Positions 2,976 through 14,094 of a stretch of DNA of 64,000 nucleotides are shown piece after piece. Source of the DNA: a virus (taxonomy: Duplodnaviria; Caudoviricetes); the IMG/VR virus record IMGVR_UViG_2974529611_000001, positions 3,486 through 67,485 of that record; one strand, given 5' to 3'. Every line of letters begins with the position of its first letter. Within the stretch, counting starts at the first letter, position 1. The position numbers were made by a program, and so were the translations under genes. The notes beneath the pieces were generated by a model. It did not search any database and was not told where the DNA came from. It saw only the letters and a list, made by a program, of their open reading frames with translations.

Positions 2976-3007
2976 GCCACATGCTGAATGAGTCTGACGC
3001 GGCACGC

Positions 3008-3013
3008 TATAAT
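3008..3013 (+). promoter_or_regulatory. Consensus -10 hexamer (TATAAT) upstream of the basic-protein cluster
   Basis: Perfect TATAAT in the 2976-3107 intergenic gap; the -35 region is weak. Confidence 0.5.
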
Positions 3014-3107
3014 CGAGGCAGACGACCGGCCCGCCCCATGAAAGGCGTGGCATCGAGTCGGGTAGCCCGGAGGGCGATCACAGGCCGACGCAAGCGAAAG
3101 TGATCTG

Positions 3108-3410
3108 ATGCCAGACTACGGTTCGACACCCAAGGTGCCGAAGCGTCGTCAACGGCCCAAGATGCGACAGCAGCGTCGAGACTACAAACGGAAGCGTGAC
3201 CGTGAAGGTCGCTTCGCTTCCACAGATCGTTCAGTGTCGTCTCGCCGGTATATCAGGGAACTTCGCCGAAAGTCCAAGAACCCCCGCCGTACCCGTAATA
3301 CGTCCAAGAACATCTACAACGAACGTGGCGGACTCAAGTCCGCAAGTGCCAAAAGAGCGGGGAAGCGCCGAGGTACTGCTAGGAATAATTCCAAGCGAAC
3401 TCGGAGGTAG
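3108..3410 (+). CDS. Highly basic (Arg/Lys-rich) protein 1
   Basis: 100 aa, roughly 35-40% K+R, with an RDREGRFA motif. First gene after the TATAAT promoter. Confidence 0.75.
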   Translation: MPDYGSTPKVPKRRQRPKMRQQRRDYKRKRDREGRFASTDRSVSSRRYIRELRRKSKNPRRTRNTSKNIYNERGGLKSASAKRAGKRRGTARNNSKRTRR

Positions 3411-3412
3411 AA

Positions 3413-4066
3413 GTGGCCAAGCGGAAGCGCAAGGCGGTACGGAAGACGCTGAAGTCTGCATCTGCCCGTGGCCGGATTCCTCGCGACAAGAATGGCAAGT
3501 TCGTCAATGCCTCGGGACGTAACAAGTCCAAGGGTGCCAACGTTCAGAACCTGAAGCGCGGTGGGGGAGGCGGTGGTCGCCGTAAGGCCAGCTCTTCGAG
3601 CCGGACTGCATCCAACCGACCAGCGGCCCGCAAGACTGCATCCAATAAGCCGCCGATCACCGGGCAGCCGAAGAAGTCCAGCAGCAAGGCTGGCAAGCCG
3701 CAGACCGGCAAGACGGTCAACAAGCGCAAGCCAATGTCCAGGAAGAAGCGGGCAGCTATTGGCGCAGCAATTGGAGCTGGCACATATATTGCAGCGACCG
3801 GCGCATTCCATGCGGCGGGGAAGATCGGTGAGCACCGGGCCAGGAAGGCCCAGGCCGAGTACTACCGTCGCGAAGACCAGAGAGTCGGGGGATACGCAGC
3901 GGCTCGGAACTACGCCAAGATGGCCTACAATGGACACTCGGTGAAGGCAGGACAGTGGTATCGCCCGACTGAATCGAAGTACACCAAGCCCAAGACGAAG
4001 CGATCTTCCCAGCGGGCGTTGGGCTCGGGTACGCGGGCGTTGGCGGGCACGAGAGCGAGGCGATAA
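3413..4066 (+). CDS. Highly basic protein 2 with a Gly/Ala hydrophobic segment
   Basis: GGAGG RBS and GTG start. RDKNGKFV motif and AAIGAAIGAGTYIAATGAF segment. TAATG-coupled to the next gene. Confidence 0.8.
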   Translation: MAKRKRKAVRKTLKSASARGRIPRDKNGKFVNASGRNKSKGANVQNLKRGGGGGGRRKASSSSRTASNRPAARKTASNKPPITGQPKKSSSKAGKPQTGKTVNKRKPMSRKKRAAIGAAIGAGTYIAATGAFHAAGKIGEHRARKAQAEYYRREDQRVGGYAAARNYAKMAYNGHSVKAGQWYRPTESKYTKPKTKRSSQRALGSGTRALAGTRARR

Positions 4067-5181
4067 TGGCCAAGAAGCGGTACAAGAAGTACCGTCGCCG
4101 TGTTGGTGGCAATCGTGCCTGGGGCAACGCGCTTGGCGGATACCGGACCCAAGCCCGAGTCGATGGACAGTTTGCCTCTGGCAAGGGTGGCAATCGAAAG
4201 TCCGCGTCGGCACGCCGCGCTGAGGGGTACCGCAAGAAGCAGGCCAAGGATCGCAAGCGTCGCAATCGTCGGAATGCCACGGTTGGCGCTGCGGTCGGCG
4301 CCACCATCGTAGTCGGTGCCGGAGCTTACGCTGTCCACAAGAGTCGGCAGTCGAAGGCATCGGCCACCAACGGTGTCCAGATGAAGACCTTCCGCAGTGT
4401 CCAGCGTCGGCCCAAGAAGATCGTTCCGGTCAGCGTTCCCAAGCCTGTGCCTACGGTCGGGAAGACGTCGACGGGGCGAAAGGACTTGCCCAAGAGGCCA
4501 GTCCCGCCGAAGAGCATCGTTGAGCAGGCTCGTGATATCCAGGGGCAGCGTGCGGCATCGAACGAGCGCATGGGAACGTTCAAGTACCGGGGCAACAAGG
4601 GCGAATGGCGCGACCCCAACAACAAGAACAAGCAGCACGGCACCCTGAAGCCGGGGTCGCAGACGAACGGGTCTCAGGACATATTCACCGGCGTCATGCC
4701 TCGGTCAACTGGGCGCTTGAGGGCCCCAGATGCCAACGCACTGAACGCTGCCATGGAGGACTTCGCCAAGTCCCAGGGTGTCCAGCTCGGCGTGACTGCT
4801 CGGAAGACGGTTCGGCGTACTCCGAAGATGACTAAGGGCCAGTTGGCTGGTGCCCTGCGGAAGGATCGCGCTCGGCACTCTCAGCGCGCCCTCAACAATG
4901 GTCGTGCCCTTTGGCACGGCGTCCAGACCGGACAGATCAAGACGGTGCCTGGTACCGGATCAATCAAGGGGATGGCTGGTAAGAAGGCGTTGGCCAATGG
5001 CCAGGACCTCTTCTACCATGGGCCAGGTAGCCACAGTCGAATTGGCATGTCGGGTAGCCACGCGGCAAACCGTGCAATCCAAAACGGTGAGAAGATGTTT
5101 GATGCCCTCTACTACGTTCGGGGCAAGAAACAGTACGCATACCTGGCCGCTAAGAAGAGGAAGAACCCCAAGAAGTATTAA
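4066..5181 (+). CDS. Highly basic protein 3 with a hydrophobic segment
   Basis: GGNRAWGNALGG-x-R-x-Q-x-R-VDGQFA motif shared with 5442..6314, plus ATVGAAVGATIVVGAGAYAV. Confidence 0.8.
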   Translation: MAKKRYKKYRRRVGGNRAWGNALGGYRTQARVDGQFASGKGGNRKSASARRAEGYRKKQAKDRKRRNRRNATVGAAVGATIVVGAGAYAVHKSRQSKASATNGVQMKTFRSVQRRPKKIVPVSVPKPVPTVGKTSTGRKDLPKRPVPPKSIVEQARDIQGQRAASNERMGTFKYRGNKGEWRDPNNKNKQHGTLKPGSQTNGSQDIFTGVMPRSTGRLRAPDANALNAAMEDFAKSQGVQLGVTARKTVRRTPKMTKGQLAGALRKDRARHSQRALNNGRALWHGVQTGQIKTVPGTGSIKGMAGKKALANGQDLFYHGPGSHSRIGMSGSHAANRAIQNGEKMFDALYYVRGKKQYAYLAAKKRKNPKKY

Positions 5182-5184
5182 GGA

Positions 5185-5442
5185 GTGATGGCAATGGCAG
5201 TCAGCCGCATGCCGCCACAGCTTCAAAAGAGCTACCTCACTGGCAAGGTCGCGAAGCGAATCAGGTGGGGAACGCCAGGCGACTATCGTAGATGCCGGAG
5301 GCAGGCTCTCAAGCATGGGATGACTCCGCATCAAGCAGCAGGAGTATGTCAGACGCTACACAAGAAGGCCACTGGTATGTACACTGGTGATCGTCGTCAC
5401 CTTGGCAAGAAGGCCAAGAGAGGCAGAAAGAAGAGGCGATAA
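5185..5442 (+). CDS. Small basic head-associated protein (RWGTPGD..RC..C..LH..ATG type)
   Basis: AAGGAG RBS. The motif IRWGTPGDYRRC...GVCQTLHKKATG resembles one I recall from actinophage head-morphogenesis proteins (unverified). Confidence 0.7.
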   Translation: MMAMAVSRMPPQLQKSYLTGKVAKRIRWGTPGDYRRCRRQALKHGMTPHQAAGVCQTLHKKATGMYTGDRRHLGKKAKRGRKKRR

Positions 5443-6314
5443 TGGCCATCCGGCGTATCAGCGTCCCGAAGATTGGCGGAGGGCGCGCTTGGGGCAATGC
5501 CCTTGGTGGCTTCCGATTCCAGCATCGGAACCGTCTCGGTGAGTTCGCACTGTCTGGGCAGAAGACGAACCGGGAACGGTACCTGGACGCCATCGCCAAG
5601 TCCCGTCGCCGGGGCAAGGTGGCCGCTGCCCGCAAGATCAAGAACCCGAATGCCACGACTCCTCACGGCAAGGCCGCGATGAAGTCGGCGGCGGCGCGGG
5701 CAACGAACGGAACCAAGATCAAGGCGGGCATTGGCATTGCCGGTGGCACCGTAGCGGCCATCGGAATCATCCGGACCGTCTCTGGTCTGTCGCCGTTCTT
5801 TGACATCAGCCGAAAGAACTTCCGTATTGGCGTCAAGCCGTCGGTTGATCTGGGGCGCAACTTCAAGTTGAGCACCGTTCACTCCATCGGTATCGAGCGG
5901 ACTGGCGATGACCTCTTCGACAAGGCCATCAAGCGTGGTCAGGAGGGCGTCTCGATTGGTACTCGCCGAGCCTTTGGCAATGGATCTCGGGGAGACTTGG
6001 CAGTTGGCATCGCCGATAACATCACTGGTCGTCAGACGCAGCTGAAGGTCGCTGGTGTCAAGCTCACCCAGGAAGGCGGCGGTGCCGGATCGGCACGACG
6101 TTGGCGCTACAGCGGTGGCAACAGCAGCGGCAAGGCTGCGGTACCAGGAGCGCCCGCCTCTGCGAAGAATGCCAAGAGTAAGCGCAAGCCTGGCAAGGGT
6201 GCCCACACCGTGACCACCACTGCCAAGGGCAAGCCTGCCGTTCGGGGCCAGCGCCGCAAGAAGAAGGCAAAGGCCGCCAGCCAGAAGCGCCGGGGTCGAA
6301 GCTACACCAAGTGA
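5442..6314 (+). CDS. Highly basic protein 4, paralogous N-terminus with 4066..5181
   Basis: GGGRAWGNALGGFRFQHRNRLGEFA motif, hydrophobic AGIGIAGGTVAAIGII segment, TAATG coupling. Confidence 0.8.
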   Translation: MAIRRISVPKIGGGRAWGNALGGFRFQHRNRLGEFALSGQKTNRERYLDAIAKSRRRGKVAAARKIKNPNATTPHGKAAMKSAAARATNGTKIKAGIGIAGGTVAAIGIIRTVSGLSPFFDISRKNFRIGVKPSVDLGRNFKLSTVHSIGIERTGDDLFDKAIKRGQEGVSIGTRRAFGNGSRGDLAVGIADNITGRQTQLKVAGVKLTQEGGGAGSARRWRYSGGNSSGKAAVPGAPASAKNAKSKRKPGKGAHTVTTTAKGKPAVRGQRRKKKAKAASQKRRGRSYTK

Positions 6315-6355
6315 TCCAGCAGGTATACTAGGTGAGAACCTAGTAGGAGGATACC

Positions 6356-6805
6356 ATGGAGTACATGCCTGCTGATCTGGCCAAGACGCTATCTGCGATG
6401 GCCAGGGGCACCCACAACGAGATTTGTGGATTCATCTTGGATGACTGGACGTTAATCTCTGTCCGGAATGTCGCCCAGTTGCCAACCATAAGCTTTGAGA
6501 TGAGCATGAATGCCATCCTCGGAGCTGTGGAGATGGCCGCAGCATCTGGCCGGGAGATTCTGGGCACCTACCACAGCCACCCTGGCGGATCAACCGAGCC
6601 CAGCGAAACCGACCTTCATGGCTGGCCTCGATTCATTGATGGATCATACGCTCGGTACTGGGTTGTAACTGGCGATACCGTTCGGGAGTTCGAGCGCACC
6701 GGGGAAGGATCAGAGATTGGCTTCCAGCTCATTCATTCTATCGGAATCGGGGTCGTCGTCAAAAGACCCGAAGAAGGTATGGATCAATCGGTACCTGAGG
6801 ATTGA
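6356..6805 (+). CDS. JAB/MPN (JAMM) Zn-metalloprotease
   Basis: Complete JAMM signature: E22 ... HSH-PGGSTEP-S-ET-D (ExnHxHx7Sx2D). AGGAGG RBS. Confidence 0.85.
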   Translation: MEYMPADLAKTLSAMARGTHNEICGFILDDWTLISVRNVAQLPTISFEMSMNAILGAVEMAAASGREILGTYHSHPGGSTEPSETDLHGWPRFIDGSYARYWVVTGDTVREFERTGEGSEIGFQLIHSIGIGVVVKRPEEGMDQSVPED

Positions 6806-7664
6806 TCGTGAGTTCAACAAGGAACTCAATGAAGCACTTGTTCAAGCTGCCGAAGATGTTGAGCGGGAAGTTGCTGAGCTCTTCGCCAAAGCTGGCGTGG
6901 GAGCCACTGTCCGCCGCGCTCAGCTCACAGGAGCTTCAGGAGTTATCACAAAAGTCCTCCATGCTCTATTTCTTTCCTCGGGAACACTCATTGGAACGTA
7001 CCGAGCGAAAGCCGCGACCGAATCCGTCAAGGCCGCCAATGTCTGGGATGATGAGGTACTCAAAGCCCTCATACCGGACCCGGCGAAGCGAAAGGTCTTC
7101 AAGTCCAGTCTTGAGCTTACCGCATCACGCAATGTGGAGGCCATGGTCAAGCGAGTCACCGGTGACACGGTCACTCTGAGCCGGAGGGTATACCGAAGTG
7201 AAGCGTTGGCTCGTGGGCAGATTGACCGTGTCATCAACTCCAGCTTGGCTAAAGGCGACAGTGCTGCTGAGCTCGCACGCAAGGCGAGAGCCTTTATCCA
7301 CCCTTCTACTCCTGGTGGAGCTTCTTACGCTGCTAAGCGCCTTGGTCGTACTGAGATCAATAATGCGTTTCATGCCCAGGCAATCGCCACCAATCAGAAC
7401 CGACCTTGGGTTAGCCAAATCAGGTGGCACCTCAGCGGTAGCCACACACCACGACCTGGTGATCCATGTGAACGGTACCACCGACAGGGAGTATTCCCTG
7501 TGGGATCAACTCCAAAGAAGCCACACCCACAGTGCCTCTGTTACATCACTCCAGAAGTACCGCCAATCGAGGTGATCCTCCAGCAGTACGAGTCGGGGAT
7601 ATATGACCAATGGTTGGCAGATAACAAGCTCGAACGTGACAGTAGGGTATTATCACCTGCGTAA
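6717..7664 (+). CDS. MuF-like minor head morphogenesis protein (start uncertain)
   Basis: AKRLGRTEINNAFH, WHLSGSH...PC and PHPQCLCY are typical MuF C-terminal motifs. Lies just before the scaffold. Confidence 0.8.
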   Translation: MASSSFILSESGSSSKDPKKVWINRYLRIDREFNKELNEALVQAAEDVEREVAELFAKAGVGATVRRAQLTGASGVITKVLHALFLSSGTLIGTYRAKAATESVKAANVWDDEVLKALIPDPAKRKVFKSSLELTASRNVEAMVKRVTGDTVTLSRRVYRSEALARGQIDRVINSSLAKGDSAAELARKARAFIHPSTPGGASYAAKRLGRTEINNAFHAQAIATNQNRPWVSQIRWHLSGSHTPRPGDPCERYHRQGVFPVGSTPKKPHPQCLCYITPEVPPIEVILQQYESGIYDQWLADNKLERDSRVLSPA

Positions 7665-7689
7665 AGGGATCAACGAACCGGAGGTTCAC

Positions 7690-8478
7690 ATGTACGGCTT
7701 GAAGCCACTGAAGGCGCTCTCGGAAGCCACTGCCATTCCATTCTGGTCGCTCAGCATCTACGGTGCTGAGGGCGAAGATGGTGGCGACGGTGGCGACAGC
7801 CAGGGCGGCGGCGATGACGACGGCGGCGACGACGATGGTGGTGACGATGAAGGCGGCGACGACAAGACCGACTTCTCGGCCATCAGCGACCCCAAGGAGC
7901 GCCGCATCGCCGAGCTGAGCGACGAGGCTGCCAAGGCCCGCATCGCCAAGCGGGAGATGAAGAAGCAGCACACCGCTGAGCTCAATGATCTCAACAAGCG
8001 GATCAAGGACCTGGAGAAGGCTGCCAAGGGCGGCGAGGGTGGCCCCGAGATCACCGACGAGATTCGGGCCGAGATCGAGCAGCCCTACGTTGAGAAGATC
8101 GGCCATCTGGAGAAGTTCGCCTACCGGCAGGCCATCGAGAATGCCATCCTCAAGGAGTCCGTGGCGGACGGGGCCGCTCGCCGGGTTTGGTTCGACACCT
8201 CCGACGTGATCGCCAATCTCGACATGGATGCAATCGACTTCGACCTCGAATCAGGTAGTATCGACGGTATCGCGGACGAGCTGAACCGCATCGCCTCAGC
8301 CAAGCCCCATCTCGTGAAGGAGAAGGGCAAGGTCAAGAAGAAGGAAGATGATGGCCAGCAGAGCCGTAGGGGAGCTTCTGGGAGACAACCTGGCGGTGCC
8401 GGGGCCCAAATCCATGGTATGGATAAGTCACGAAGAGATGAACTGGGCGCCAAGTACCCGGTTCTGAATCGCCGCTAG
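7690..8478 (+). CDS. Capsid scaffolding protein
   Basis: GGAGG RBS before ATG 7690. Acidic Gly/Asp linker and coiled coil, directly upstream of the capsid genes. Confidence 0.75.
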   Translation: MYGLKPLKALSEATAIPFWSLSIYGAEGEDGGDGGDSQGGGDDDGGDDDGGDDEGGDDKTDFSAISDPKERRIAELSDEAAKARIAKREMKKQHTAELNDLNKRIKDLEKAAKGGEGGPEITDEIRAEIEQPYVEKIGHLEKFAYRQAIENAILKESVADGAARRVWFDTSDVIANLDMDAIDFDLESGSIDGIADELNRIASAKPHLVKEKGKVKKKEDDGQQSRRGASGRQPGGAGAQIHGMDKSRRDELGAKYPVLNRR

Positions 8479-8498
8479 TCCAAGAAAGGTAGTAGACT

Positions 8499-8888
8499 GT
8501 GAGCGCAGACTACGACAAGTACGAGCCGTACTCCAACGGCTTTCGTGCGATCCTCAACGCTGACTTCACGGATGACACCAAGTTCGGTGTCCCCCTGGGT
8601 GTTGGCCTGAACGCCAACGGTCTCCTCGTCATCGGTGCCGGTCAGACCGGCATCGTGGGCGTGATGATTCTCGGCAAGAAGAAGAAGGCTGGCGCCGCAG
8701 TCGACACCATGACGTCCGGTGAGATCACCGGCTTCGCGGGCGCTGCTGGCACCAAGTACTTCGCCGATGCATCCACCGGAGAGATCAGCGCCACCGATGG
8801 CGCGGGCAAGACGTTCGTCGGATTCACCGCCGAGGCTGACCGTCTGATCGTTCGCACCGGCTCCAACTACAAGACCCCCACGGTCTGA
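8499..8888 (+). CDS. Capsid decoration/cement protein
   Basis: 129 aa, Gly/Ala-rich beta protein between scaffold and major capsid, strong codon bias. Confidence 0.7.
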   Translation: MSADYDKYEPYSNGFRAILNADFTDDTKFGVPLGVGLNANGLLVIGAGQTGIVGVMILGKKKKAGAAVDTMTSGEITGFAGAAGTKYFADASTGEISATDGAGKTFVGFTAEADRLIVRTGSNYKTPTV

Positions 8889-8902
8889 GAGGAACCAGAA
8901 CA

Positions 8903-10090
8903 ATGAGCGCAATGAACATGTTGCTCCTGGCTCCGATCTATGGAGCTGAGCGTCGCAACGGTTACCTGACCGAAGCTGACATCGTCCGGACCACCATCGA
9001 CGGCGTTGACCTCAACGCCCTGTGGCAGGACTTCCAGGACTCGGTGAACATCATCAACGAGCACCTGGGTCGACTCGTGGAGCTGCTGACCTTCCCGGTC
9101 ACCAACCCCATCGAGACCGTTCCGCAGGTCGGTGCCACCGAGTTCGAGCTGGCTACCGAGTTCGGTATCCCTCGGTCGCGCAAGGTTGAGGTCGACTACT
9201 TCCACCTCGGCTACGACTTCGATGACTACGATGGTCGTATCGCATACACGTGGAAGTTCCTGCGTGATGCGGATGCCCGTCAGGTCGAGGCCGTCCACCA
9301 GAAGAACCTTGAGGCCGATGGTCGCCTGGTCTTCCGCAAGGTCATGGAAGCCATCTTCGACAACCGGAACCGTGAGGCGGACATTCGTGACCGCCCGTAC
9401 ACGGTCTACCCGTTGTACAACGGTGATGGCACCGTGCCGCCGAGCTACAAGGGCGTCACCTTCGACGGCACCCACTCGCACTACTTGGTCTCGGGCGCTG
9501 CGGCGATCGACTCCAAGGACGTCGAGGACATGTACGACCACATCGCCGAGCATGGCTATGGCATCGAGAATGGCACCACGTTCATCCTCTTCGTCAACAA
9601 GCAGCAGCTCAACGCGATCCGCACCTGGCGTCGCGGCGTGACCAACGCCAACGGTGCAGTGGCAACGTACGACTACATCCCGTCGCCCACTCGCCCGGCC
9701 ATGTTCCTGCCCAACGCCGAGGGCCTGCTGGGCTCCCAGCCGCCTGCGGCATGGAATGGTCTGCCGGTGGACGGATCGTACGGTGACATCCTGATCATCG
9801 AAGAGCCGATGGTTCCGGCCAACTACCTCTTCATGTTCGGAACTGGCGGAGCGGGAAACCTCCAGAACGTCGTGGGCATCCGTGAGCACGAGGCCGAAGC
9901 CTACCGTGGCCTTCGCCTCATGCCGGGCAACCAGGCTCGGTACCCGCTCGTGGACTCGTACTACGGTCGGTCGTTCGGTACCGGCGTTCGTCAGCGTGCT
10001 GGCGCTGCGGTCATGCAGATCAAGGCCAGCGGCACGTACGACATTCCCAACCAGTACAAGCGTGGCACCGGCCTGACCGTGGGAGTCTGA
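8903..10090 (+). CDS. Major capsid protein (HK97 fold inferred)
   Basis: 395 aa, very strong C/G third-position bias, GAGGA RBS, canonical position after scaffold and decoration genes. Confidence 0.85.
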   Translation: MSAMNMLLLAPIYGAERRNGYLTEADIVRTTIDGVDLNALWQDFQDSVNIINEHLGRLVELLTFPVTNPIETVPQVGATEFELATEFGIPRSRKVEVDYFHLGYDFDDYDGRIAYTWKFLRDADARQVEAVHQKNLEADGRLVFRKVMEAIFDNRNREADIRDRPYTVYPLYNGDGTVPPSYKGVTFDGTHSHYLVSGAAAIDSKDVEDMYDHIAEHGYGIENGTTFILFVNKQQLNAIRTWRRGVTNANGAVATYDYIPSPTRPAMFLPNAEGLLGSQPPAAWNGLPVDGSYGDILIIEEPMVPANYLFMFGTGGAGNLQNVVGIREHEAEAYRGLRLMPGNQARYPLVDSYYGRSFGTGVRQRAGAAVMQIKASGTYDIPNQYKRGTGLTVGV

Positions 10091-10091
10091 C

Positions 10092-10493
10092 ATGAGTCGA
10101 TTCATCGATGACAACAAGCCATTCACCGAGGAGGACATTGAGTACCTCCAGACTCGGCCGGATGGCGAGTACCGGATCAGCCTGAACCAGGCTCGGTTCG
10201 GTGACCTCTCGGACGAAGAGAAGTCGGAGGTGGCATCCCAGAAGGATGCTGACGACGAGTTCGACGCCCAGGAGGAAGCCCAGATCGAAGAGGCCATCGC
10301 CGAGTCGGAGCTGGACTTCGATGACGATGTGATCGCCAAGGTCGAACCGCTCTCCTACAATGAGCTTCGCCAAGCGGCGAAGAAGCACGACCTGGATGCC
10401 AGTGGCACCAAGGAAGAGCTTCAGGACCGCATGCTGGAGTTCTACCAGGAGCAGAAGGAAGCGTCGACCACCGTACCGGTGATCAACGACTGA
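10092..10493 (+). CDS. Acidic protein with C-terminal SAP/HeH-like motif
   Basis: LSYNELRQAAKKHDLDASGTKEELQDRM fits the SAP/HeH pattern; the rest is D/E-rich. Confidence 0.6.
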   Translation: MSRFIDDNKPFTEEDIEYLQTRPDGEYRISLNQARFGDLSDEEKSEVASQKDADDEFDAQEEAQIEEAIAESELDFDDDVIAKVEPLSYNELRQAAKKHDLDASGTKEELQDRMLEFYQEQKEASTTVPVIND

Positions 10494-12720: not shown

Positions 12721-13574
12721 CCAGTCCCATGCCGGTCGCTCTGCCGTATGGCATCCGTGATTGCAAGCTCACCCCCTACTCGGATTCGAGTGGAACCGTC
12801 CTCGGCAACACCTCCATCGACCTGCCCTACATGCAGACCTTCAGCTTCTCGGAGACTGAGGAGTTCCAGGAACTGCGAGGCGATGACAAGGTCATCACCA
12901 CTCGTGGCCAGGGCGCACAGGTCGAATGGTCGCTGGAGTCGGGTGGCATCTCGCTGAAGGCGTGGGCCGTCTTCACTGGTGGAACCGTCACCGAGTCGGG
13001 CACCACTCCGAACCGCAAGGTCACCCTGCGCAAGCTCGCGACGGCCAACCGTCCGTACTTCCGCATCGAGGGCCAGGCCATCTCCGATTCGGGTGGCGAC
13101 CTTCACGCCATCGTCTACCGTTGCCGCTGCAACGACACCATCGAGGGCGAGTTCGCCGATGGCGAGTTCTTCGTGACCTCGGTGTCCGGTCTGGGCCTTC
13201 CGCTGCTGGACAGCGACTTCGATCTCCTGTACGATTTCGTCCAGAACGAAACCCTTCAGGCGATCTCGTCCACCCCGGCTGCCAACCCGTTCGGACCGCC
13301 CAGCGGCCTGACCAACGGTGCGGTCACCTCTACCAGCGTCGTGCTCAACTGGGCCGAAGTCCCCGGTGCCAGCGGCTACAAGGTCGAGAAGTCGTCCGAT
13401 GGTGGCTCCACCTGGTCGAGCGCCGGTACCGATCCCGCGACGGGTTCGACCACCACGCTCACCGCGTCCACTCTCACCGCGTCGACGACCTACCTGTTCC
13501 GCATCTCCACCAAGAAGAACGGAACCACTTCGTCGCCGTCCGCTCCGATCAGCGTGACCACCCCGGCCACCTGA
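12717..13574 (+). CDS. Major tail protein with C-terminal fibronectin type III domain
   Basis: Tail-tube-like N-terminus (LPYGIRDCKL...ELRGDD) and an FN3 pattern (PSGLT...SVVLNW..VPGASGYKV...TTYLFRI). Strong codon bias. Confidence 0.85.
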   Translation: MTSPMPVALPYGIRDCKLTPYSDSSGTVLGNTSIDLPYMQTFSFSETEEFQELRGDDKVITTRGQGAQVEWSLESGGISLKAWAVFTGGTVTESGTTPNRKVTLRKLATANRPYFRIEGQAISDSGGDLHAIVYRCRCNDTIEGEFADGEFFVTSVSGLGLPLLDSDFDLLYDFVQNETLQAISSTPAANPFGPPSGLTNGAVTSTSVVLNWAEVPGASGYKVEKSSDGGSTWSSAGTDPATGSTTTLTASTLTASTTYLFRISTKKNGTTSSPSAPISVTTPAT

Positions 13575-13617
13575 TCCTGATCAACAGACAACGGTTTAGG
13601 AATCCAAGGAGATCCCA

Positions 13618-14094
13618 ATGTCCAAGTATGAACCCACAGCCTGGGGACAGTCTGACGACCTGATTGACATTCCCCTCCCATCGGGCCAGCTGTGCCAGGC
13701 GCGAACTCTGGAGATGGAAGATATCATCCGTCTCGGCCTGATCAATGATCTCGACACCTTCTCGTCTGCATTTGGCGACGACAACGAGGATCGAGATGGT
13801 ATCGAGTTCCTCAAGTCGGTCACCGACAGCGGTGCCTTCGACAAGCTGACCCGTACGCTCAACATCGTCGTGGTGGACCGTGTGGTCCAGCCGAAGGTCT
13901 ATGCCGTTCCTGACCAGAAGAAGGAGCGAAAGGCCGACCGAATCTACATCGACCAGATCAAGTTCACCGACAAGATGGCCATCTTCAGCGTGGTCTTCAA
14001 GGGTCTCGGTGATATGGGCGACTTTCGCGAAGAATCGGGAGATGGTGTGGGAGCTGTGGAATCGAAGCCAATCGTTGAGGGTGCGCCCCTCTGA
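13618..14094 (+). CDS. Tail assembly chaperone (short form)
   Basis: Between major tail and tape measure; AAGGAG RBS. Confidence 0.8.
   Translation: MSKYEPTAWGQSDDLIDIPLPSGQLCQARTLEMEDIIRLGLINDLDTFSSAFGDDNEDRDGIEFLKSVTDSGAFDKLTRTLNIVVVDRVVQPKVYAVPDQKKERKADRIYIDQIKFTDKMAIFSVVFKGLGDMGDFREESGDGVGAVESKPIVEGAPL

Follow-up and report, generated by a model that had tools for sequence, protein, structure and literature searches.

A stand-alone JAMM metalloprotease gene in the head module of a Gordonia phage and its putative role in the removal of capsid and scaffold leaders

Genome and organisation of the head region

The window analysed here, i.e. the whole stretch of 64,000 nucleotides at positions 3,486 to 67,485 of the IMG/VR record IMGVR_UViG_2974529611_000001 (67,485 bp, rated complete), belongs to a Gordonia phage of the Lambovirus group and covers nearly the whole genome. 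Its nucleotides 3000-10100 are 96-97% identical to those of the Gordonia phages BirthdayBoy, Lila22 and Gibbin, and its first position falls just past the portal gene. The subject of this analysis is the gene at 6356-6805, which encodes a stand-alone JAMM/MPN+ metalloprotease and is located among the head genes (all features below are on the plus strand). In the Patience-like head module of actinophages this enzyme probably serves as the protease of head assembly (prohead-type), and would remove the N-terminal leaders of the major capsid protein (MCP) and of the scaffolding protein.

Downstream of the JAMM gene, a MuF-like minor capsid protein is encoded at 6717-7664 (phrog_17987, E 2e-74, and a weak match to Pfam Phage_Mu_F); the reading frame begins with TTG and shares 89 nt with the JAMM gene, and in Gibbin it is annotated as MuF-like. 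A JAMM-MuF fusion by frameshifting was considered and rejected, since the two frames are offset by +1, the genes are annotated separately in relatives, and JAMM occurs in loci of the Terapin type without a detectable MuF. The assignment of MuF itself as a protease, found among GenBank and RefSeq labels, was also rejected, because the phrog_17987 match covers the MuF part only and reveals no protease domain. The scaffolding protein gene (7690-8478, 262 aa; Pfam Phage_scaffold, E 9.5e-12, and phrog_4866) starts with the ATG at 7690, as annotated in relatives, with a GGAGG site upstream. It is followed by the gene of the minor capsid (trimer or decoration) protein (8499-8888; phrog_5042, annotated as minor capsid protein in relatives) and by the MCP gene (8903-10090, 395 aa; phrog_3990, E 2e-170). 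The MCP has the Patience-like HK97 fold (PDB 8GIU, the Patience capsid, E 1.7e-144), and its family is present in 155 phage records.

Portal, basic proteins, JAMM, MuF, scaffold, minor capsid protein and MCP are encoded in this order in Lambovirus, in the Mycobacterium phage clusters U, H, D and R, in Fowlmouth, in Terapinvirus and in Nocardia phage P3.1; no MuF gene was identified in the modules of the last two. Synteny of the JAMM gene covers 11 annotated phages, and it always lies between the portal gene and the genes of scaffold, minor capsid protein and MCP: in Patience (cluster U), Cborch11 and Barnyard (H), Delton, Adjutor and Hawkeye (D), Riparian (R), Fowlmouth, Terapin/Suzy and Nocardia phage P3.1. 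Usually it directly precedes MuF and directly follows a run of proteins with an isoelectric point (pI) of 12, and the module is characterised by this block of pI-12 proteins, located between portal and JAMM. Eighty IMG/VR loci were fetched by alignment of the MCP, and in 53 of the 54 that have at least 700 nt upstream of MuF the JAMM profile found a match; the metagenomic relatives of the enzyme show the same gene order, and loci of the Terapin type have kept JAMM although a MuF gene was not detected in them. In Patience-like head modules the JAMM gene is nearly universal.

The JAMM protein

The JAMM open reading frame has an ATG start and a GGAGG ribosome-binding site upstream, and encodes a protein of 149 aa with a pI of 4.7. 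It matches Pfam Prok-JAB (PF14464) with E 2.5e-12 and 47.1 bits at a cut-off of 25, and belongs to the MEROPS class M67. The JAMM signature, as read from the sequence, is complete (E22 ... H73-S-H75-x7-S83-x2-D86): Glu22, the predicted general base, is encoded at 6419-6421 and aligns with the corresponding Glu of Pyrococcus furiosus JAMM1 (PfJAMM1), and the zinc-binding and catalytic block H73-S-H75-PGGSTEP-S83-ET-D86 occupies 6572-6613. From a full scan covering 1.8 billion representative proteins, 403 relatives were obtained at E <= 0.001. When 72 of these were aligned, E22, H73, H75 and D86 proved invariant and S83 nearly so. The AlphaFold2 model (mean confidence, pLDDT, 93) contains a folded domain at residues 1-130 and an acidic C-terminal tail at 131-149, the latter of low confidence. 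Its best PDB matches in Foldseek were structures of PfJAMM1, both alone and bound to SAMP2 (5LD9/5LDA, E 4e-8, TM 0.75), followed by Rpn11, AMSH, CSN5 and Cap3; PfJAMM1 was the best PDB match by sequence also. PfJAMM1 is a desampylase that cuts after Gly-Gly, and SAMP2 is ubiquitin-like. Thus by profile, motif and fold the product of 6356-6805 is a Prok-JAB/M67 JAMM protease, and by analogy its activity is predicted to be zinc-dependent cleavage after Gly-Gly. The complete JAMM motif that the first-pass annotation had reported between the basic proteins and MuF was borne out by the reading frame, the Pfam match, the individual residues and the model. A box, CCTAGTAGG, was observed at 6335-6355, directly upstream of the JAMM gene and overlapping its GGAGG site (GAACCTAGTAGGAGGATACCATG).

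Word-indexed searches with the JAMM protein and with the product of the preceding gene at 5442 returned near-identical Gordonia phage proteins only. A tblastn search with JAMM matched phage records of Gordonia (39), Mycobacterium (68) and Nocardia (one), as well as distant tail proteins of the lambda gpK type. Its orthologs have been labelled as metalloprotease, protease, capsid maturation protease, tail protein or hypothetical protein; Gibbin and Lila22 annotate the gene as 'metalloprotease', and the annotation of Gibbin contains no protease besides it.

In the complete genome of 67,485 bp no match to Peptidase_S78, S78_2, S77, S49 or ClpP was found at E <= 0.1, the S77 profile search having been run without a positive control. 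Nor did the complete genome yield a match to ThiS, Prok_Ub or Lambda_tail_I, i.e. a gene for a ubiquitin-like protein (Ubl) as partner, and it contains a single JAB gene. JAMM is the sole protease-like gene of the head region and of the genome. The lack of an HK97-type prohead protease and of a Ubl, first reported for the window, thus holds in profile searches of the complete genome, including the part outside of the window.

Leader motif shared by the scaffold and the major capsid protein

In each phage, scaffold and MCP have one short motif in common near the N-terminus, hydrophobic-Gly-(Gly/Ala/Ser) in form, and it changes in step between lineages. In the window, the predicted scaffold leader (residues 1-26, 7690-7767) ends with SIYGA, IYGA lying at 7756-7767, and would be cut at A26|E27; the predicted MCP propeptide (residues 1-15, MSAMNMLLLAPIYGA, 8903-8947) has IYGA at 8936-8947 and would be cut at A15|E16. 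The two sites read ...FWSLSIYGA|EGEDGG and ...LLLAPIYGA|ERRNGY, respectively, and these are the only two occurrences of IYGAE in all six reading frames of the window. The MCP propeptide aligns with VFPIFGG|T20 of Patience.

Corresponding pairs (scaffold first, MCP second) are SIFGA|E and PIFGA|E in DumpTruck, LPIFGG|T and FPIFGG|T in Patience, WPIFGG|E and FPIFGG|T in Cborch11, PPFGG|E and LPFGG|E in Riparian, and KFFAFGG|DGG in both proteins of Terapin. In Delton and Hawkeye the scaffold has LSG|H and the MCP LSG|H or LSG|R. Both proteins carry (L/I)WGGDG in loci L047, L085 and L090 and PIFGA in L097, and in L098 the scaffold reads PIFGS and the MCP AIFGS. To quantify the likeness, the MCP leader was compared with the scaffold N-terminus in 41 non-redundant loci by the highest BLOSUM62 score of an ungapped 6-mer, the N-termini of MuF, JAMM and the minor capsid protein of the same phage serving as controls. 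The median score was 25 for MCP against scaffold and 18 for the best control, and the MCP-scaffold score exceeded all controls in 38 of the 41 loci (Wilcoxon p = 3e-8). That two proteins with no other relationship change in concert points to a single factor recognising both. The minor capsid protein of the window contains no leader motif, and no processing of it is expected.

Mature N-termini and capsid structures in the literature

Published data on two phages of this lineage agree with cleavage at the motif. The N-terminal peptide of the scaffold-like Patience protein gp21, identified by mass spectrometry, starts at residue 35, after a Gly, and is accounted for neither by trypsin nor by translation initiation (PMC4324244). 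Residues 30-35 of gp21 are P-I-F-G-G-T, so that the observed end follows directly after the motif (PIFGG|T). The 2.4 Å model of the Patience MCP starts at Thr20, described as a well-placed terminus, and the first 19 residues are without density (PMC11965321); residues 15-20 of this protein are again P-I-F-G-G-T. The MCP model of Adjutor, a cluster D phage, starts at Asn28 (PMC11965321), three residues past VVGLSG25. The minor capsid proteins of Patience and Adjutor keep the N-terminal Met in the capsid structure (PMC11965321) and have no motif in the register of MCP and scaffold. Neither of the two papers (PMC4324244, PMC11965321) ties these N-termini to JAMM, and in literature searches no paper was found linking JAMM to the cleavage motif, to the observed N-termini or to a role in head maturation.

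In addition, only the N-terminal half of Patience gp24 was found in virions (PMC4324244). Its gene (13194-13880 of the Patience locus, L003) encodes ...LEYAEGG|FVGY at residues 117-127 of 228, which may represent another cut after Gly-Gly.

Putative role in head assembly

JAMM enzymes bind the extended C-terminal tail of a Ubl, which in ubiquitin reads ...L-R-G-G, within a groove and hydrolyse the bond that follows its final Gly; some members of the family, such as HvJAMM1, PfJAMM1 and their relatives, act on ordinary peptide bonds of linear precursors. Judged by analogy with these enzymes, a cut after Gly-Gly fits the specificity of the family. The JAMM of the head module would bind a short N-terminal leader in the way JAMM deubiquitinases bind the ...Leu-Arg-Gly-Gly tail and would cut the ordinary peptide bond after hydrophobic-Gly-(Gly/Ala/Ser), the leader playing the part of the Ubl tail and the mature capsid or scaffold protein that of the leaving group. 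In this phage, residues 1-15 of the MCP and 1-26 of the scaffold would be removed; a lineage-specific extension might also take in the leaders of two basic proteins, presumably internal (...RAWGNALGG|Y/F). 'Ubl-like processing without a Ubl', as the mechanism was first called, is a fair description of this proposal. Of the two roles suggested in the first-pass annotation, head maturation is now the better supported, by the conservation of the module, the co-varying motif and the Patience N-termini, whereas cleavage after NALGG is plausible but cannot be the conserved role of JAMM.

The chances appear about even that the whole Patience-like HK97-fold actinophage lineage uses JAMM as its capsid-maturation protease, in place of serine proteases of the herpesvirus-fold or ClpP type. 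On the same balance, this would extend to the 155 sequenced phages of Mycobacterium, Gordonia, Microbacterium and other hosts and to many metagenomic contigs, and, with equal reserve, the leaders might be regarded as mimics of the ubiquitin tail on MCP and scaffold and, in Lambovirus and Terapinvirus, also on very basic internal proteins.

Several points weigh against assigning this role to JAMM. Processing at the motif is seen in the published Patience and Adjutor data only; we infer that the same cuts occur in this phage, that JAMM makes them, and that the basic proteins are also substrates. Missing density in an MCP model is not proof of cleavage. A different cut in the Patience MCP, between residues 82 and 83, was proposed in 2014 (PMC4324244); it was rejected here because residues 20-82 are built in the 2.4 Å model, and the capsid paper discusses Glu26, Asp40, Val58 and Val73 of this protein (PMC11965321). 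Adjutor's minor capsid protein contains PYGGG and yet keeps its N-terminal Met, so the motif alone is insufficient and its context matters. The site is also loose: P1 may be Gly, Ala or Ser, with single cases of Cys, Asn and Phe, and variants such as LSG in cluster D and F(K/R)G in locus L021 occur, whereas the pockets of classical JAMM enzymes, to our knowledge, accept Gly-Gly only. The basic proteins of other clusters lack any GG leader. Finally, since JAMM co-occurs almost universally with this family, nature offers no knock-out test.

Loci without JAMM in the head module also belong here. Microbacterium phages of Krampusvirus and Arthrobacter phage Wollypog have an MCP of the same family and no JAMM among the head genes, and in both the sharing of the motif by MCP and scaffold is weak. 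Wollypog has only a RadC-like JAB gene, far away. Of the Microbacterium phages, Haunter and Poultress have a sub-threshold JAB-like reading frame upstream of the terminase gene with HSH-x6-S-x2-D (18 bits at a cut-off of 25). It is located at 753-1184 of the Haunter locus (L103) and in the same place in Poultress, and has an active-site loop shortened by one residue. In these two phages Gln or Arg, not Gly or Ala, stands before the acidic run of MCP and scaffold (LYGQ|DGG, LQGR|DGE); enzyme and site may co-vary. Locus L070 has the leader motif and no JAMM between portal and MuF; this place is taken by a DUF6527 gene, and a small HExxH protein (SprT-like, weak) is encoded upstream of the terminase gene (the two at 212-583 and 3778-4116). 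JAMM may have been replaced by another metalloprotease in L070 or may lie off the contig. These cases neither confirm nor refute the link between JAMM and the motif.

The leaders of MCP and scaffold could also be removed by other means, either by a host peptidase or by autoprocessing of the MCP through a metal site, JAMM having another job; this we consider rather unlikely. The Patience MCP binds a metal at H198/H200/E223/H224, a putative metal-binding site (PMC11965321), and the same residues are present in the window as H191, H193, E216 and H217, of which H191, H193 and H217 are invariant and E216 nearly so among 11 MCPs. The site has four ligands and looks structural rather than catalytic, which speaks against autoprocessing. 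The other job might be the stripping of host ubiquitin-like or Pup-like conjugates from virion proteins as counter-defence, or an action on MuF, and both are rated equally low. JAB enzymes are known in conjugate removal, Cap3 is among the fold matches, the connection of JAMM with its substrates is indirect, and a head-module JAMM is missing from some relatives of the MCP family. However, JAMM is fixed beside the head genes across hosts of three genera, and an assembly role fits this better than a host-specific counter-defence; a cut after Gly-Gly is, as generally known from PfJAMM1 and SAMP2, the hallmark of the JAMM family, and no further protease was matched in the genome. At its metal site the MCP of the window reads THSHY, which resembles an HxH motif.

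Basic proteins and the NALGG leader

Two basic proteins encoded between portal and JAMM carry a conserved peptide near the N-terminus. The first (4066-5181, 371 aa, pI 11.7) has a candidate leader of residues 1-25 (4066-4140) ending with RAWGNALGG|Y, and the second (5442-6314, 290 aa, pI 12), whose gene lies directly upstream of JAMM, has one of residues 1-23 (5442-5510) ending with RAWGNALGG|F. RAWGNALGG corresponds to residues 17-25 (4114-4140) and 15-23 (5484-5510), respectively; the LGG motif first noticed in these neighbouring proteins is therefore real. The two copies are identical in peptide and have six synonymous third-position differences over nine codons, which indicates purifying selection on the peptide. 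In a six-frame translation of the window WGNALGG is confined to these two sites, and WGNALGG(Y/F/W) was found in two Lambovirus and three Terapinvirus proteins, always within the first ~25 residues. In the metagenomic relatives L097 and L098 the basic protein has an LWGNQLT(G/Q)G|YKTQ leader in the same place, with LTQG instead of GG in L098. The basic proteins of other clusters have different leaders, RRRAALKKAQxASARKRR or NPRQPRDxxGRW, and cluster D has one small basic protein only.

The products of Patience genes 10-18 are virion proteins, all but one having been found, and gp15 is among the three most abundant bands (PMC4324244). The high-resolution Patience shell accounts for MCP, minor capsid protein and gp4 only (PMC11965321), and for this reason the basic proteins are presumably internal. 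As their leader resembles the hydrophobic-Gly-Gly site of MCP and scaffold, cleavage by the same enzyme would be a reasonable extension. The motif continues to the primed side as (Y/F/W)-(K/R)-x-Q and may thus be a binding or targeting signal, instead of or besides a cleavage site. That the 4066 and 5442 proteins are cut after LGG is accordingly a tentative prediction from their sequences, somewhat less probable than the contrary.

A dedication of JAMM to these basic proteins, from which it would remove leaders of ~23-25 residues like a capsid-targeting sequence, with no role in MCP or scaffold processing, is unlikely. In its favour, the motif ends with Leu-Gly-Gly as Ubl tails do, is N-terminal and the same in two paralogs despite the synonymous changes, and recurs in three Terapinvirus basic proteins and, varied, in L097 and L098; the 5442 gene also directly precedes JAMM. 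However, the motif is confined to two genera and close relatives, where L098 already departs from it, and JAMM is conserved in clusters with quite different basic-protein leaders, including cluster D; being conserved far more widely than NALGG, JAMM cannot have NALGG cleavage as its conserved role. The co-varying MCP/scaffold motif and the Patience N-termini would also be left unexplained.

It is highly unlikely that the protein acts as a mere binding partner of head proteins, an MPN scaffold devoid of catalysis: inactive MPN- proteins are, as is generally known, common partners in eukaryotic complexes, but they lose the catalytic residues, while E22, H73, H75, S83 and D86 are all present here and conserved in the 72 aligned relatives.

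The other genes of the basic block have no NALGG leader. Two very basic genes of 100 and 217 aa (pI 12) are located at 3108-4066, and a small basic gene at 5185-5442 (85 aa, phrog_6439) encodes an RWGTPGDYRRC...C motif and no GG motif; this last protein also partially matches phrog_21406, a PHROG profile of 1668 positions, and is conserved beside the basic protein in the metagenomic locus L098 (445-687). Many basic proteins of the window (3108-6314) and of loci L003, L005 and L012 have R-D-x-x-G-(R/K)-(F/W) near the N-terminus (PRDKNGKF, RDREGRF, NPRQPRDRFGRW), and many likewise have a hydrophobic segment rich in Gly/Ala. The proteins encoded directly upstream of JAMM in Patience (gp18), Cborch11 (gp11), Terapin (gp7) and Nocardia phage P3.1 have homologous C-terminal parts.

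Comparison with known systems

A tail-assembly function like that of lambda gpK, implied by the 'tail protein' labels of PHROG and RefSeq, is most improbable, for although the best PHROG matches bear this label (phrog_5556, E 1e-22, and phrog_30) and tblastn reaches gpK of Burkholderia and Erwinia phages with 28-32% identity, JAMM is a 149-aa stand-alone domain without the NlpC/P60 half, its gene is placed between portal and MuF, with the tape measure gene ~8 kb downstream, no Lambda_tail_I partner is encoded in the complete genome, and the label was carried over from the JAB domain alone. The gpK protein (JAB and NlpC/P60) with its Ubl, gpI, shares with JAMM the JAB domain and weak sequence matches; it is a tail-module product, fused to NlpC/P60 and paired with a Ubl, none of which applies to the JAMM of the window.

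The closest matches in sequence and structure are PfJAMM1, HvJAMM1 and AfJAMM (M67, Prok-JAB), which have the same fold, size and E...HxH-x7-S-x2-D site. Enzymes of this type cut after a C-terminal Gly-Gly, including the peptide bonds of linear fusions. They differ in what they recognise: archaeal and bacterial JAMMs act on a folded Ubl (SAMP, ThiS/MoaD-like), while the proposed tail is here a capsid-protein leader of 15-26 residues, with Ala or Ser tolerated at P1. Moreover, Ubl-JAMM systems (SAMP/ThiS/MoaD, gpI-gpK) have a beta-grasp partner in the same genome, in contrast to this phage, in whose complete genome the ThiS, Prok_Ub and Lambda_tail_I profiles matched none.

Canonical prohead proteases (HK97 gp4/S78, T4 gp21/S77, lambda C/ClpP-S49) have the same proposed job and the same gene position between portal and MCP. 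They are serine enzymes of herpesvirus-protease or ClpP fold, whereas JAMM is a zinc enzyme of unrelated fold and chemistry, and, unlike with them, short propeptides of 15-26 aa are predicted and the scaffold stays a protein of its own. As is proposed for JAMM, these enzymes act on several head proteins at a common short motif; T4 gp21, for one, cuts the MCP, the scaffold core and the leaders of internal proteins. The NALGG leaders recall those of the T4 internal proteins and of adenovirus pVII and pre-mu.

As proposed, and judging from general knowledge, JAMM would work most like the maturation proteases of adenovirus, African swine fever virus (ASFV) and vaccinia virus. These enzymes, adenain, pS273R and I7L, are Ulp1-like cysteine capsid or core maturation proteases of Ubl-protease descent, which cut several structural precursors at (M/I/L)-x-G-G|x, G-G|x or A-G|x, and their substrates include the N-terminal leaders of very basic DNA-condensing core proteins (pVII, pre-mu). 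They are clan CE cysteine proteases from another virus realm, so that the likeness to JAMM would be convergent.

The products of Patience gene 19 ('protease') and of cluster D gene 11 ('capsid maturation protease' or 'JAB/MPN domain protein') are orthologs of JAMM in the same module. Their role as proteases has thus already been guessed by annotators, in GenBank annotation only, and a JAMM capsid-maturation protease would be a kind not yet described in print. If the proposal is true, JAMM metalloproteases would form a fourth, mechanistically unrelated class of prohead proteases. Their activity would account for the non-tryptic N-terminus of Patience gp21 and for the first 19 and 27 residues missing from the capsid proteins of Patience and Adjutor, respectively, and would correct the 82/83 cleavage of the MCP proposed in 2014 (PMC4324244). 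It would also provide a rule for where the mature MCP and scaffold begin in over 150 genomes of actinophages, and correct the 'tail protein' labels. Further, it would mean that a JAMM can use a bare peptide leader rather than a folded Ubl, which bears on the evolution of Ubl-protease specificity, and that the GG|X rule of adenovirus, ASFV and poxviruses, read by descendants of Ubl proteases, has an independent counterpart in bacterial viruses.

Other features of the head region

The product names of genes 11-12 of Cborch11 (L005, MH509445) look shifted in GenBank: a 257-aa protein of pI 12 is named 'capsid maturation protease' and the 152-aa JAMM 'major capsid protein', while the real MCP, the product of gene 16, is labelled 'hypothetical'.

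The basic-gene block of the window lacks one paralog of 120 aa, which is encoded by gene 7 of Gibbin (6323-6685 of its locus, L001) and lies in Gibbin, Lila22 and others between the 100-aa and 217-aa basic genes; the corresponding gap is at 3410-3413. The block therefore varies in copy number among near-identical phages. Two large acidic genes (3-1319 and 1359-2975) are located between the portal gene and the basic block. They have an N-terminal segment in common, differ between close relatives and are labelled 'esterase' in Gibbin and DumpTruck and hypothetical in Lila22; they form a variable cassette within the head region.

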